Shown here: positions 35,688-39,980 of the stretch, piece by piece
How positions within the stretch are numbered: position 1 is the stretch's first letter
How the letters are laid out: each line of letters begins with the position of its first letter
The notes under the pieces: generated by a model
The model's input: only the letters and a program-made list of their open reading frames with translations
Database searches by the model: none
What the model was told of the DNA's origin: nothing
Assembly (NCBI GenBank): GCA_964582615.1
Contig: CAZORP010000002.1
Coordinates: 38,865-102,864, forward strand
DNA: 64,000 nucleotides
Reading direction: 5' to 3'
Origin: an uncultured Gammaproteobacteria bacterium
GTDB lineage: Bacteria; Patescibacteriota; Patescibacteriia; UBA9934
Made by a program: the position numbers and the translations under genes

Positions 35688-35777
35688 GGAGAGGTGGCAG
35701 AGTGGTCGAATGCGCTAGACTCGAAATCTGGTGTAGTCGAAAGGCTACCGCGGGTTCGAATCCCGCCCTCTCCGCCA
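35688..35777 (+). tRNA. tRNA-Ser (anticodon CGA), type II with long variable arm, CCA encoded
   Basis: GGAGAGG...CTAGA-CTCGAAA-TCTGG-variable arm-GCGGG-TTCGAAT-CCCGC-CCTCTCC-G-CCA. Confidence 0.9.
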
Positions 35778-35796
35778 GGACAGTGTTTTATCAAGA

Positions 35797-35880
35797 AACT
35801 CACGTGCGTTTCGTGCACGTGAGGCGTCTCTAGAGCCTTGTCCTAAACAAAACAACCCTTTGCGGGGTTGTTTTGTTGTA
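35797..35880 (+). terminator. Two strong hairpins downstream of tRNA-Ser
   Basis: CTCACGTGC-gtttcgt-GCACGTGAG, then AACAAAACAACCC-ctttgc-GGGGTTGTTTTGTT. Confidence 0.4.
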
Positions 35881-35981
35881 TTGGAAGGTGCTTTACAGAA
35901 CAGAGGGTGACGGATATGGCGGCTGGATATGCCTATGGCGTATATCGGTACTTTCTATTTGCTATACTTTTATAAAATAGT

Positions 35982-38900
35982 ATGCAGGAAAAAGAGAGAA
36001 GTTCGAAAAGATTTGAAGTCAAGCTTGGTCTTCAAGAGGTTGCTGAAAATGAGGAAGAGCAAAAGCTCAAAATAGACGGCTTAGTTGATGCGTTATTTTT
36101 AGCCATAGAAAAAAATGACCCCTATTTCCAGACATCGTTTGCACGATCGGAAATGACACACATAATGAATGGACTATTTTCCCCTCGAGATCGGGAGTAT
36201 TTTCTTGTTGGTGTTCTTAAAAAAAATCCTGAGCTTGCGTTGGGTTTTGGAAAATTTTTTCAAGAGTCCGAATCGATTGTATTGAAATATTTATGTGATG
36301 AAAATCTTGATGAATCGACAAGGTTGAGAATTTCTGAAGCGGCAATCGGGGCCTTTGATGTTATACATAACATACGTCTTTTAGAGGCTATCGAGAAACA
36401 GCTTTCATTTGAAAGTTTGTGGAGATTTAGGAAAAAATTTGGATATAGCGACGAATCTTTTGTGAGAATGCATGGAGTTATTAGTTTTATTAGGAATAGA
36501 TTTTTTTCTGATATTCCTTCTTGGCTAAGAGAGGAAATAAAACGCAAATCTCTAGAGGTTATTGTCTATTCAGATGAGTTTATATTTTGGGAGATCATGG
36601 ACAATCTAGAAAATATCGGAATTTCTCACGATGAAATTTACGATAAATTCGCTTCAAAGGGAAAGCTTCATGTACTTGCCCCCTATGTAAAACTCTTCTC
36701 AAGAGAAAAGCATGAGGGCATCCTTGAGTCATGTCTTAAACACGATAAACATTCTCTTAATAAATATTGGCAAAATTTTTATATTCATGATTTAAGAAAA
36801 TTTCTTAAAAGAGTTCTTGATTTAGACTGTGAGATTTTTGGATTTGATGCGCGTAGCTTCTCTTCGTTCTTCAGTCGGCGCCAAGAATTTTTTCACGAAG
36901 AAGAGTCTCATGCGGAAGGTTATTCGCATGATCTTCAAGGTGAATATGAGGCTTGTATAAATTTTTTTATAGAAAGCTCCTTGCCAAAAGAATTCTTTGA
37001 ATTTTGCAAACTTCAAAAAATTCACATCCAAGAAGATTGGATTAAAAGAATTGCAGAAAAATATAAGGGGGATTTATTCATTATCCAAAATCTTCCCATG
37101 TTGCGACATATTAGAAAACTTCCAGAGATTTCTTCTTTGTCAATTCATGAATTTTTAGATTCGTATTTTCGCTATAATCTTGGCGAAGCACCGATTGTAG
37201 AGATCTTCTTAAGAAGACATGATTTTCCAGAATTAGTCACTAATGAAACATTTCTCGCATACTTTGGTAATACGAAATTCTTTTGGAAGAATTTTGAAGC
37301 GCTTGATATTCCAAATAAAGAAAAATTTTTACGAGTATCATACATAAGCGATGCCTTACTAGAACATTTTGAAGCTTTGAATGAGCCTACGAAGAAAATT
37401 CTCGTTCGCAATCTTCTAGATGAATGTTTGCATCACCAAGGCCTGATTAATATCGAGAATTTTTTTCAAAATGAAGAAAAAAGAAAATACCTCAGCGACA
37501 AGGATATTGTTGATGTTATTTTCGGCAACGATACTCGTTTTTACTGGAGCCAAGATTTTCTTCAAGATTTATTGATGAGTCGAAGGAACTCAAAAGAACT
37601 TGCGCAGAAGATTCTTGAAGGTAATCTTTCTGAAGGTCGTCAAGAAGAAGAGTGGAATGCTTACACTATTAATTTTATACTGACAAATTTTGAGGTAAAA
37701 ATACATGATAAGCCTTTTCTTTTTTGTAAAGAAAATATTGGTAATTTCTTTTCAAAAAAAACCTATCATGCAGTTAAAGATATTTTTCTTGGAAAAAAAG
37801 ATTCAGAAGCTTGCGCGGATTTCTGTATCACCGAAAGCGGTGATAAAGCACTTCTACAACTTCGAAAAAAAATTCAAGAGATGAAGTTGCGAATGTATAA
37901 TCCAAATTTTCTTGATAAAGACCTTTTTGAAAATAATGTCTATCTTGAAATTTTTAAAAATGCGGTAAGATTTTCTGAGGCACAATTTCATGGCGATAAT
38001 CCCACGATTCATAGAATTATTTCAAATTTTTACAATGCAGAATCTTTAGGTGAAGTGAAGTCCCTTGATCCCTATTATCAATACAATTTATCAGAGAAGG
38101 TAGAAAGGCTTCGTACTGTTAAAGTTGAAGATTTTTCTGATGGTTCACGAGTTCGGTATGGGTATCTCAAAAGTCGCATTATGGCGGCGGGTGAATTAGC
38201 AAAAAGGAGTGATATTTTTTCTTTTTCAGTGAAAAAAATTGAAGAAAAAATTTCTCATGAAATCAAGCGTCTCAACGATCTTCTTGAAAAACTAAAAAAC
38301 CCCATCGCTCGTGAGAATGTTTTTAAAAAAATTCTAGATTTACAGAATATCAAGCTAAGAAGTTTGGAAAGTTTTCAGGAAAATTTTCACAAGATCTGTT
38401 CTGAAAATATTGCCAATGACGATGTTCTTGAAATGCTTTTTGCGTATGCGCTTCGGAAAGTGCCAGACAACCAATCTCCGCTCATCGCTTTGCGAGGATC
38501 CAAGAGTCCTAGCATCGAGGATATGAGTCGAGTTGTTGAGTTCTGCGAACATGTTGTTGTTGATATGGTTTGGAAGAGATTTTTTACTCAAAAAGAGTAT
38601 AGAAAAACACTTTTTGGCATAGCTAATTGCAATGCACTCACAGACGAGATTGTTCGTTCGCAAAATGCCGAGTCGAGGGGTTTTATCGATATGGAATTCT
38701 TTGCTACGAGAGGGATTCTTATGGAGTTTTCTGGTCACTTCTCCGATGCATGTTGGGCTGGAAAATATGGTAGCATCGCCAAAAATTTTCCTAACATGTT
38801 TACGTCAGTTTTTGTACAAAATAAAGGAACGAAGTACGAGCGTATAGTCGGATGTTCAATGTTTATTGAAACGGTTGCCGTTGATGGGACTCCGCTTCTT

Positions 38901-39296
38901 GTTATACGAGGACTAAATCCTTTAGAGAATGTTATTAACCACCTTTCAGCAAGGAGTTTTTTCACGGCATTTATAAAATATGCAAACGAACTCGCTCAAA
39001 GATCGGGAAGGGTCTTGGCTATTGTTATTGATGATCATTGTGGAGGATCGTCTACAAATAGACCTGTCATGTATGAGCTTCTTGCGAGTTTGCGAAGTTC
39101 GCTTGAGAAGGTGACGCTCAAATCGCCTCAAGATACCACGTTTAATGGTTATAACATTGTTAACGAAACATATTTTGTTTCAGAGGAACTCCTAGGGGAT
39201 CAAAATGACTATTCTTATGGTAGAGAATTTCCTGGATTTGGGAAAATGAAGGAGATTTTTCCTAAAGATTTTTCTCTAAAACCTCAAGCTCGTTAA
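35982..39296 (+). CDS. Large (1104 aa) orphan cytoplasmic protein rich in K/E/F/N/L/I, probably alpha-helical; no recognisable family
   Basis: Single uninterrupted ORF, A+T-richer than the neighbouring genes, no signal peptide. The C-terminal third carries Cys/His motifs (SDACWAGKYG, VIDDHCGG). Confidence 0.6.
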   Translation: MQEKERSSKRFEVKLGLQEVAENEEEQKLKIDGLVDALFLAIEKNDPYFQTSFARSEMTHIMNGLFSPRDREYFLVGVLKKNPELALGFGKFFQESESIVLKYLCDENLDESTRLRISEAAIGAFDVIHNIRLLEAIEKQLSFESLWRFRKKFGYSDESFVRMHGVISFIRNRFFSDIPSWLREEIKRKSLEVIVYSDEFIFWEIMDNLENIGISHDEIYDKFASKGKLHVLAPYVKLFSREKHEGILESCLKHDKHSLNKYWQNFYIHDLRKFLKRVLDLDCEIFGFDARSFSSFFSRRQEFFHEEESHAEGYSHDLQGEYEACINFFIESSLPKEFFEFCKLQKIHIQEDWIKRIAEKYKGDLFIIQNLPMLRHIRKLPEISSLSIHEFLDSYFRYNLGEAPIVEIFLRRHDFPELVTNETFLAYFGNTKFFWKNFEALDIPNKEKFLRVSYISDALLEHFEALNEPTKKILVRNLLDECLHHQGLINIENFFQNEEKRKYLSDKDIVDVIFGNDTRFYWSQDFLQDLLMSRRNSKELAQKILEGNLSEGRQEEEWNAYTINFILTNFEVKIHDKPFLFCKENIGNFFSKKTYHAVKDIFLGKKDSEACADFCITESGDKALLQLRKKIQEMKLRMYNPNFLDKDLFENNVYLEIFKNAVRFSEAQFHGDNPTIHRIISNFYNAESLGEVKSLDPYYQYNLSEKVERLRTVKVEDFSDGSRVRYGYLKSRIMAAGELAKRSDIFSFSVKKIEEKISHEIKRLNDLLEKLKNPIARENVFKKILDLQNIKLRSLESFQENFHKICSENIANDDVLEMLFAYALRKVPDNQSPLIALRGSKSPSIEDMSRVVEFCEHVVVDMVWKRFFTQKEYRKTLFGIANCNALTDEIVRSQNAESRGFIDMEFFATRGILMEFSGHFSDACWAGKYGSIAKNFPNMFTSVFVQNKGTKYERIVGCSMFIETVAVDGTPLLVIRGLNPLENVINHLSARSFFTAFIKYANELAQRSGRVLAIVIDDHCGGSSTNRPVMYELLASLRSSLEKVTLKSPQDTTFNGYNIVNETYFVSEELLGDQNDYSYGREFPGFGKMKEIFPKDFSLKPQAR

Positions 39297-39525
39297 GGTA
39301 TTTAGGCGCTTTTCGTGGTGAAGATTTTGCGCTGAAGCTGGGAGATGATGGGTGAAATCCGAAAATTCTTCTGGAAATCTGATAGACATATTTGCAGCGA
39401 GTCTTTATAAGGCAAGATGAAATCTTGCTCTTGCAGGTAAGAGCTTGTGTATCTATGCTTGTGGTTGAAATGGTAAAATGCAAAATTAATATAAATATTG
39501 AAAAGTTTTTTACACAAAAATAACC

Positions 39526-39768
39526 ATGAATCATCCCCATAAAACATCAGCGGAAATAAGATCTTTTCTTCATGAGTACAGTCTTGAAAAGATTTGGGAA
39601 ACGCTCACGCCGCTTGGAAGAAATGAATATCTTTGCTGGATTGGTTCGGCAAAACAGGAAGTAACTCATCTCAAGCGACTTCATCGTTTAAAAAGCGATC
39701 TTCTTTCAGGAAAACGTCGTCCTTGTTGTTGGCCGGGGTGTCCTCATCGAGAAAAGAATGGAACATAA
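39526..39768 (+). CDS. Small protein resembling the YdeI/OmpD-associated (DUF1801-like) family
   Basis: NEYLCWIGSAKQEVTHLKRLHRLKSDLLSGKR pattern with a C-terminal CCWPGCPHR. Confidence 0.45.
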   Translation: MNHPHKTSAEIRSFLHEYSLEKIWETLTPLGRNEYLCWIGSAKQEVTHLKRLHRLKSDLLSGKRRPCCWPGCPHREKNGT

Positions 39769-39795
39769 AAACCAGCAAAATTCGCTGGTTTTTAT
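39767..39795. terminator. Bidirectional terminator hairpin, copy 1
   Basis: aaaaACCAGCaaaattcGCTGGTtttttat, immediately after the stop codon. Confidence 0.55.
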
Positions 39796-39951
39796 AGAGT
39801 AGTAACAGGAATGTGACTAGATGATCATCCAGCCGCCATCGCATCCATGTCCAAGGATTGGGAAGGAAAACATAGGTTTTTGTTTAAAAATAAGTGTGGG
39901 ATAGTAACGCGAGTATCGTAATATGGGAAAATATCTATCGTCAACAATGAA

Positions 39952-39980
39952 AAAAACCAGCAAAATTCGCTGGTTTTTAT
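39952..39980. terminator. Bidirectional terminator hairpin, copy 2 (identical 29-mer)
   Basis: Exact repeat of the 39767-39795 sequence. Confidence 0.55.

Follow-up and report, generated by a model that had tools for sequence, protein, structure and literature searches.

Members of the GNAT superfamily bind their acyl donor between strands β4 and β5, and the α1–α2 region shapes the acceptor site. The aminoacyl-tRNA acetyltransferases AtaT, TacT and KacT are stand-alone representatives of about 160–175 amino acids (aa) that are encoded beside an RHH/DUF1778 antitoxin. The C-terminal domain of Mycobacterium tuberculosis ICL2 (Rv1916), a non-catalytic acetyl-coenzyme A (acetyl-CoA) sensor on an isocitrate lyase, provides a precedent for a GNAT-like domain at the C-terminus of a large protein. 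Iyer et al. (2017, PMC5512222) also list GNAT modules as effector domains in the polyvalent or giant conflict proteins of actinobacteria and mobile elements; these GNATs resemble RimI, and standard profiles detect them.

Here we analyze a gene from a patescibacterial genome assembly (GCA_964582615.1) that is located on a stretch of 64,000 nucleotides (nt) of contig CAZORP010000002.1 (positions 38,865 to 102,864), which is referred to as the window throughout. It comprises an open reading frame (ORF) of 3315 nt on the plus strand (window positions 35982–39296), encodes a protein of 1104 aa and belongs, as a full-length member, to an unnamed family that occurs mainly in Patescibacteria. According to structure models, the C-terminal region of the protein (aa ~895–1070) is a divergent GNAT-fold domain. 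Our favored interpretation, to which we assign a probability of about 0.6, is that of an acyl-transfer enzyme built on a GNAT scaffold, which belongs to an unnamed family of the candidate phyla radiation (CPR) and is encoded at a variable locus.

The strand and helix order, the overall fold and the location of conserved residues near β4, β5 and α4, i.e. in the donor-binding zone, are shared with the GNAT superfamily. In contrast, the family lacks profile-level similarity to Pfam GNATs, its motif A is replaced, its β5–α4 loop is long and Gly-rich (D-D-H-S-G-G-S-x-T-N-R-P), an invariant Cys-Trp pair follows α1, and the domain is always preceded by a helical domain of about 300 aa without a fold match. 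AtaT, TacT and KacT represent the best structural matches (6ajm_B, 7ak9, 5zgn; probability 1.00, TM 0.48–0.57), but the identity with the window domain is only 8–14%, the domain forms the C-terminal end of 1104 aa instead of standing alone, and the gene has no antitoxin-like neighbor. The ICL2 domain is a recurrent fold match as well, whereas the window protein carries no isocitrate lyase or other enzyme domain and the conservation of polar residues is much stronger in its family. The giant conflict proteins resemble a subset of the family in which the helical plus GNAT-like module is part of giant high-G+C proteins with a SecA-DEAD-like helicase, DUF4185 and arrays of helix-turn-helix (HTH) domains. 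The window protein, however, consists of a single catalytic-looking module, its gene is chromosomal and surrounded by housekeeping genes, its family was not found in viral contigs or PLSDB plasmids, and its GNAT domain is not detectable with profiles.

Structure of the C-terminal module

The ORF is a genuine gene, and its product of about 127 kDa is soluble. The N-terminal half (aa 1–574; 35982–37703, plus strand, as for all parts of the gene) diverges fast and contains no recognizable domain. It is followed by a conserved all-helical domain (aa ~575–890; 37704–38651) without a known fold match, by the divergent GNAT-fold domain (aa ~895–1070; 38664–39191), which was assigned from the structure model and Foldseek searches, and by an unconserved C-terminal tail (aa ~1075–1104; 39204–39293). 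The tail is predicted to be disordered (pLDDT <50 at model residues 501–530), and the family alignments stop at aa ~1066.

An AlphaFold2 model of aa 575–1104, which was built on an alignment of 24 sequences (A1), reached a pLDDT of 86.5 and a pTM of 0.81. Residues 1–322 of this two-domain model are helical save for one beta element, the next ~180 residues form an alpha/beta domain and the last 30 are disordered. A model of the alpha/beta domain alone, based on 39 sequences (A3), scored even higher (pLDDT 91.9, pTM 0.87). The DSSP assignment of both models shows the order β1-α1-α2-β2-β3-β4-α3-β5-α4-β6(-β7), which is the GNAT topology. All 50 of the top 50 matches retrieved by Foldseek with the domain-only model from the PDB are GNAT-fold acyltransferases, among them AtaT (6ajm_B; E 6.5e-4, probability 1.00, TM 0.49/0.57), TacT3, KacT, NatD, alpha-TAT1, GNA1 (TM 0.60), the C-terminal domain of ICL2 and SSAT. 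The two-domain model obtained weak E-values in the same search, and its compact matches are all GNATs. No credible match of the helical domain was found in the PDB and BFVD, where all probabilities remained below 0.1.

Conserved residues and the putative active site

Nineteen positions are invariant across 39 domain sequences that are 41–59% identical to the window domain and include the high-G+C copies of the actinobacterial type, namely E915, S917, G918, C924, W925, P937, G957, R976, G977, N979, P980, F993, D1017, G1022, N1026, R1027, F1054, N1055 and Y1057. Mapping onto the secondary structure places E-x-S-G in helix α1, D-A-C-W with the invariant C924 (codon 38751–38753) in the loop after α1, R-G-x-N-P at the end of β4 and D1017 at the end of β5. 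The Gly-rich loop and N-R-P are located just ahead of α4, and F-N-x-Y lies in β6. Because the invariant residues are mostly polar and lie at or near α1, the ends of β4 and β5, the start of α4 and β6 of the model, their pattern looks like an active site rather than a structural scaffold. The putative GNAT-like active site appears to be non-canonical, as judged from the sequence motifs.

The initial annotation of the window, which was made from the sequence alone, had highlighted two Cys/His motifs within the C-terminal 300 aa (SDACWAGKYG and VIDDHCGG), and both are present there. Their catalytic appearance withstood the comparison in part: the cysteine of SDACWAG is the invariant C924, whereas that of VIDDHCGG (C1020) is usually replaced by Ser. 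The adjacent H1019 is common, but several members have Q, S, N, R or Y at this position.

Distribution of the protein family

The 1104-aa protein belongs to a widespread, unnamed and unannotated family that is largely specific for Patescibacteria. A word-seeded search of 5.8 billion proteins matched the protein to itself alone, and the initial annotation had regarded it as an orphan. This result was misleading and was overturned when 1.84 billion cluster representatives were searched exhaustively with HMMER: 653 relatives were retrieved at E<=1e-3, of which 459 remained at E<=1e-10 and 248 at E<=1e-30. Identity amounts to 33–38% in the best of them, and no relative exceeds 38% among about 15 billion proteins. 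Sequence searches of Pfam, NCBIfam (including its GNAT profiles), PADLOC, PHROGs and the PDB with the 1104-aa protein yielded no match. A Pfam domain over the shared region was detected in none of 38 full-length members, no family members were found in 2.9 million viral contigs, BFVD and PLSDB plasmids, and a literature search retrieved no description of the family.

The region shared within the family spans aa ~575–1066. Its distal part (~770–1066) is present in all relatives and the preceding part (~580–770) also in about two thirds of them. The shared module ends at most 25 residues from the C-terminus in 143 of 149 representatives. The N-terminal region (aa 1–560) matches, in direct comparison, a single relative (P0004) and this one weakly, but an iterative within-family profile links 61–62 of 134 family N-terminal regions across the whole 560 residues and recruited none of 268 decoys (reversed or shuffled sequences). 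The 1104-aa protein is thus a full-length member of the family, and the profile indicates that its N-terminal half is homologous to the N-termini of other members and diverges much faster than the C-terminal module.

Relatives with a named organism are 'hypothetical proteins' of Patescibacteria, and nearly all members of the family stem from this group. When a single narrow motif was used to scan one genome for each species, 60 loci were obtained, which belong to Saccharibacteria (including oral Nanosynbacter), Moraniibacteriota, Kaiserbacteria, Dojkabacteria and Parcubacteria and, in one case, to a cultured Nocardia; Magasanikbacteria are also among the named genomes that carry the family. 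The saccharibacterial metagenome-assembled genome CAURVP01 harbors two family paralogs of 846 and 965 aa (L041, L053), whose compositions deviate from those of their flanks in opposite directions. In the oral saccharibacterial loci L034–L049, the ortholog comprises about 845 aa.

The Nocardia copy (N. arseniciresistens KC 131; L022, NZ_JBKORD010000020.1) is part of a giant frame that is open over the entire locus of 13278 nt (frame 1, >4426 aa). Its module has a G+C content of about 61%, retains all invariant motifs and is followed by at least nine XRE-type HTH domains; GLIGSRP-like linkers and a HEFVH motif are found in the same frame. Comparable proteins are P0129 (7215 aa), which carries the family module, P0147 (5862 aa), in which the module is combined with a SecA-DEAD-like helicase and DUF4185, and P0142 with sigma-70 region 4 and GerE domains. 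The high-G+C copies of the actinobacterial type (P0129, P0147, P0138, P0142; L028, L050, L031) are 62–80% identical to each other, and their nearest relative is a protein of Saccharimonadales (48%). In a neighbor-joining tree calculated without support values, the Nocardia module is nested within the Saccharibacteria clade, and the window protein is placed in a group with Moraniibacteriota and further Patescibacteria. The nested position of the actinobacterial sequences would fit a gene exchange, in either direction, between Saccharibacteria and their actinobacterial hosts.

Genomic organization of the locus

The gene is located in a variable segment of about 5.8 kb (35778–41597) that is embedded between conserved synteny blocks, as revealed by tblastn comparison of the window proteins with the two nearest relatives that were found (L066, L068). 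These are distant, with 59% identity in the upstream PGI-like protein, and contig scans of genomes and metagenomes for close relatives with the upstream PGI gene retrieved either nothing or proteins of 30–33% identity. Seven upstream genes are syntenic in both contigs (VIT1-like, AhpC, aminotransferase, ferredoxin, Pyr_redox, PGI and a small Smr-like gene). The tRNA-Ser(CGA) gene (35688–35777, plus strand; ARAGORN, Rfam), which forms part of this conserved block and delimits the variable segment on its 5' side, follows PGI and the small gene in L066 and L068 as well, and the copy in L068 is 100% identical. Downstream of the segment, synteny with L066 resumes with the NTP-transferase, methyltransferase and SBP genes and then the pilin genes of a type IV secretion system (T4SS). 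Both relatives contain unrelated genes between the flanks and lack the 1104-aa, YdeI-like and 479-aa ORFs. Since this segment differs between related genomes, the variable locus immediately 3' of the conserved tRNA-Ser(CGA) has either acquired the 1104-aa gene or lost the alternatives to it. The first gene after this tRNA in L066 (11721–12047) encodes a small protein with a GIY-YIG nuclease domain, a hint that the tRNA-Ser junction may be a hot spot of gene turnover.

The low G+C content of the gene was confirmed: it amounts to 0.353, compared with 0.44–0.48 in all other long ORFs of the window (surroundings about 0.456). All codon positions are shifted, with values of 0.47, 0.30 and 0.29 at the first, second and third position (GC1, GC2 and GC3) vs about 0.6, 0.4 and 0.38 in the other ORFs. 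The encoded protein is dominated by L, E, F, K, S, I, R and N, in agreement with the K/E/F/N/I/L-rich composition noted before, and has a strongly charged N-terminus. As proposed, it has no signal peptide, and a membrane segment was not detected either (maximum mean of 1.4 in a Kyte-Doolittle window of 19 residues). The dip is typical for the family: GC3 is lower than in neighboring genes in 39 of 43 loci (L004–L062; median −0.085), with offsets that reach −0.15 to −0.2 in oral Saccharibacteria and amount to −0.107 for the window gene (z = −2.9 vs neighbors). A+T-richness is therefore a family trait rather than the mark of a recent island, and weak expression, relaxed codon selection or frequent transfer could underlie it.

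Two strong hairpins separate the tRNA from the gene, as had been recognized in the initial annotation. Hairpin 1 (35799–35823; dG −17.3 kcal/mol, z −3.65) is terminator-like on the minus strand. Hairpin 2 (35846–35877, plus strand; dG −20.9, z −5.17) has a perfect 13-bp stem (100% complementary) with a T-rich tail and is probably the terminator of the tRNA or the upstream unit. Downstream of the 1104-aa gene lies an ORF of 80 aa (39526–39768, plus strand) whose YdeI-like nature was established with Pfam (OmdA/YdeI, PF13376; E 3.4e-9, 37.0 bits vs a cutoff of 25.6). It is not a recurrent partner, with no counterpart beside other family members or in L066 and L068. Its stop codon overlaps the first copy of a 29-nt hairpin composed of A-tract, stem and T-tract (39767–39795; dG −14.9, z −6.0). 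The second, identical copy (39952–39980; dG −14.3 on the plus and −13.5 on the minus strand) lies about 100 nt past the 3' end of a convergent gene. The presence of two identical terminator-like hairpins was thereby verified: the 29-nt sequence occurs exactly twice in the window (0 expected by chance), and a spacer of 156 nt (39796–39951) separates the copies between the convergent genes. Because only 29 nt are duplicated, the element looks like a bidirectional terminator that arose by a small local duplication rather than a dispersed repeat. The convergent gene (40081–41520, minus strand) is the last of the variable segment and encodes a protein of 479 aa with weak SdiA-regulated or beta-propeller-like matches; its G+C content is normal (0.47). 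The tRNA was the only hit of an Rfam search in the leader and terminator regions.

Across 53 family loci, no recurrent neighbor was found beyond the synteny among closely related oral Saccharibacteria, save for a protein of 405–457 aa. This protein, which matches no Pfam family and has no counterpart in the window, is encoded 10–88 nt from the family gene in five diverse loci (L004:2974–4191, L020:5193–6455, L021:7540–8802, L024:1846–3219 and L032:7400–8722). Family homologs adjoin cysS or are located upstream of dnaG-rpoD, and a tRNA is present within 600 nt of the family gene in three of the 53 loci, with a different tRNA each time.

A link to T4SS was considered, given a TraG/DUF87 neighbor in Magasanikbacteria and the T4SS-pilin genes that lie 5 kb downstream of the gene in the window, but it was rejected: no such neighbor recurs, and a T4SS ATPase is not encoded in the vicinity of the window gene. 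The pilin genes themselves are four small ORFs (PF18895) that follow the SBP gene at ~44400–46900, with the same layout in L066.

Elsewhere in the window, a G+C-rich block (5001–6000; 0.59–0.62 in a genome of 0.46) lies between tRNA-His (4813–4886) and tRNA-Arg (6051–6127). It contains the ORFs 5046–5840 (minus strand) and 5226–5903 (plus strand), with a GC3 of 0.87 in the minus frame and no match to Pfam (both frames) or Rfam. A 23S rRNA gene begins at 61886 and is cut off by the end of the window (64000), and a 16S rRNA gene is absent from the preceding 62 kb; the rRNA genes thus appear to be unlinked.

Functional interpretation and alternative scenarios

In the mechanism that we favor, the GNAT-like domain would bind an activated donor of the acyl group (acetyl- or acyl-CoA as the simplest possibility) in the cleft between β4 and β5 and would pass the acyl group on to an amine or another nucleophile of the substrate. 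The helical domain together with the variable N-terminal half would choose this substrate. C924 is located on the substrate-side loop and may have a catalytic role, perhaps by carrying the acyl group transiently. Several results weigh against an acyltransferase. The GNAT fold matches show rmsd values of 4–6 Å and identities of 8–16%, a signal of the GNAT clan of Pfam is absent in the window protein, the 38 full-length members and the 39 domain sequences (E<=10), and sequence matches in the PDB were not obtained even with the family profile. Moreover, the CoA-pyrophosphate motif A (Q/R-x-x-G-x-G/A in the β4–α3 loop) is absent. It is replaced by R976-G-L-N-P-L-E-N-V-I-N in the window protein and by the pattern R-G-L-N-P-x-E-N-x-I-N in the family, so that the donor may not be acyl-CoA or may bind differently. 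Finally, none of the 53 loci revealed a recurrent genomic partner that would hint at the substrate.

The absence of canonical GNAT catalytic and cofactor motifs, together with the recurrence of the ICL2 (Rv1916) domain among the fold matches, would also be expected of a non-catalytic ligand-binding or regulatory module on a structural or scaffold protein, similar to the acetyl-CoA sensor of ICL2. We consider such a module rather improbable, because the 19 invariant residues (including E, S, C, R, N, D, N, R, N and Y) exceed the usual need of ligand sensing and this conservation holds at 41–59% identity in CPR-type and high-G+C-type sequences alike. A hydrolase or transamidase of the papain or transglutaminase kind, which would use the Cys and His residues of SDACWAG and VIDDHCGG as suggested in the initial annotation, is very hard to reconcile with the models. 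Such an enzyme would be in line with the invariance of C924 and D1017 and the frequent presence of H1019, but the fold is that of GNATs, papain and transglutaminase structures are absent from the top PDB matches, and C1020 and H1019 vary as described above. Moreover, C924 resides in the loop after α1, whereas the cysteine of papain-like enzymes lies at the N-terminus of a helix and faces a His on a beta-strand. CPR bacteria are episymbionts, and the initial annotation had speculated that the protein is an effector or toxin. Such a role is possible on circumstantial grounds; the protein or its GNAT-like module would be exported non-classically and modify a target of the host or a competitor, and adaptation to targets or delivery would fall to the variable N-terminal half. 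This scenario is compatible with the acyltransferase mechanism. It draws on the similarity to tRNA-acetylating GNAT toxins (AtaT, TacT, KacT), the fast evolution of the N-terminal half, the GC3 reduction in 39 of 43 loci, the location at a variable locus, the use of the module as one unit of giant multi-domain proteins of the high-G+C actinobacterial type and the GNAT modules of polyvalent conflict proteins (PMC5512222). Nevertheless, a delivered effector seems unlikely to us, given that neither a signal peptide nor a transmembrane segment was found, that the loci show no recurrent antitoxin- or immunity-like neighbor and no consistent link to secretion genes, that homologs are found in the vicinity of cysS, dnaG-rpoD and other housekeeping genes, and that the family was not found in the viral and plasmid collections searched; the likeness to AtaT-type toxins may merely reflect that these are minimal GNAT cores. 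More far-reaching, and in our view distinctly unlikely, is the proposal that the proteins represent an undescribed enzyme family with a non-canonical GNAT scaffold, an invariant Cys-Trp pair and possibly a non-acyl-CoA donor or a covalent thioester intermediate, which serves as an effector of host interaction in episymbiotic Patescibacteria. In that case, the nesting of the actinobacterial giant-protein copies in the Saccharibacteria clade would record an exchange of this weapon between the symbionts and their actinobacterial hosts.

The origin of the 1104-aa gene was weighed separately. The initial annotation had suggested an acquired island based on the position beside a tRNA and the shift in composition. 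A recently integrated, tRNA-targeting island that brought the gene from a donor of lower G+C content would explain that the segment directly 3' of tRNA-Ser(CGA) differs in all three related genomes despite their syntenic flanks, and it would fit the G+C content of 0.35 vs 0.46 and the GC3 offset (z = −2.9). What stands of this proposal, as weak evidence, is the variability of the segment next to a conserved tRNA. However, no integrase or recombinase ORF was found in 35778–41597, and the proposed att-like repeat of the tRNA-Ser 3' end was searched for in vain: a 25-mer matched itself alone at <=3 mismatches, and the longest blastn-short match was 8 nt. A donor cannot be named in the absence of any relative closer than 38% identity, and the 479-aa ORF within the segment has a native G+C content. 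The compositional shift occurs in most genomes that carry the family and is hence not specific evidence of a recent acquisition, and adjacency to a tRNA is confined to 3 of 53 loci. Considering also that the relatives are so distant that ordinary rearrangement could explain the break in synteny, we regard recent integration as a fairly unlikely origin. A low G+C content beside a tRNA is, on its own, no proof of an island.

Significance of the family

Patescibacteria account for a large part of the diversity of bacteria, and the majority of their large proteins are functionally unassigned. The family described here was missed wholly by Pfam, NCBIfam and word-seeded searches and is accordingly invisible to annotation pipelines. 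Its domain boundaries, the confident model, the assignment of the GNAT fold and the 19 invariant residues provide a testable handle on a widespread group of proteins. The giant actinobacterial proteins hint at gene exchange along the symbiont–host axis. If the module acylates molecules of hosts or competitors, the family would be relevant to the manipulation of hosts by episymbionts; should it be a housekeeping modifier, it would still represent a lineage-typical enzyme that is worth naming.

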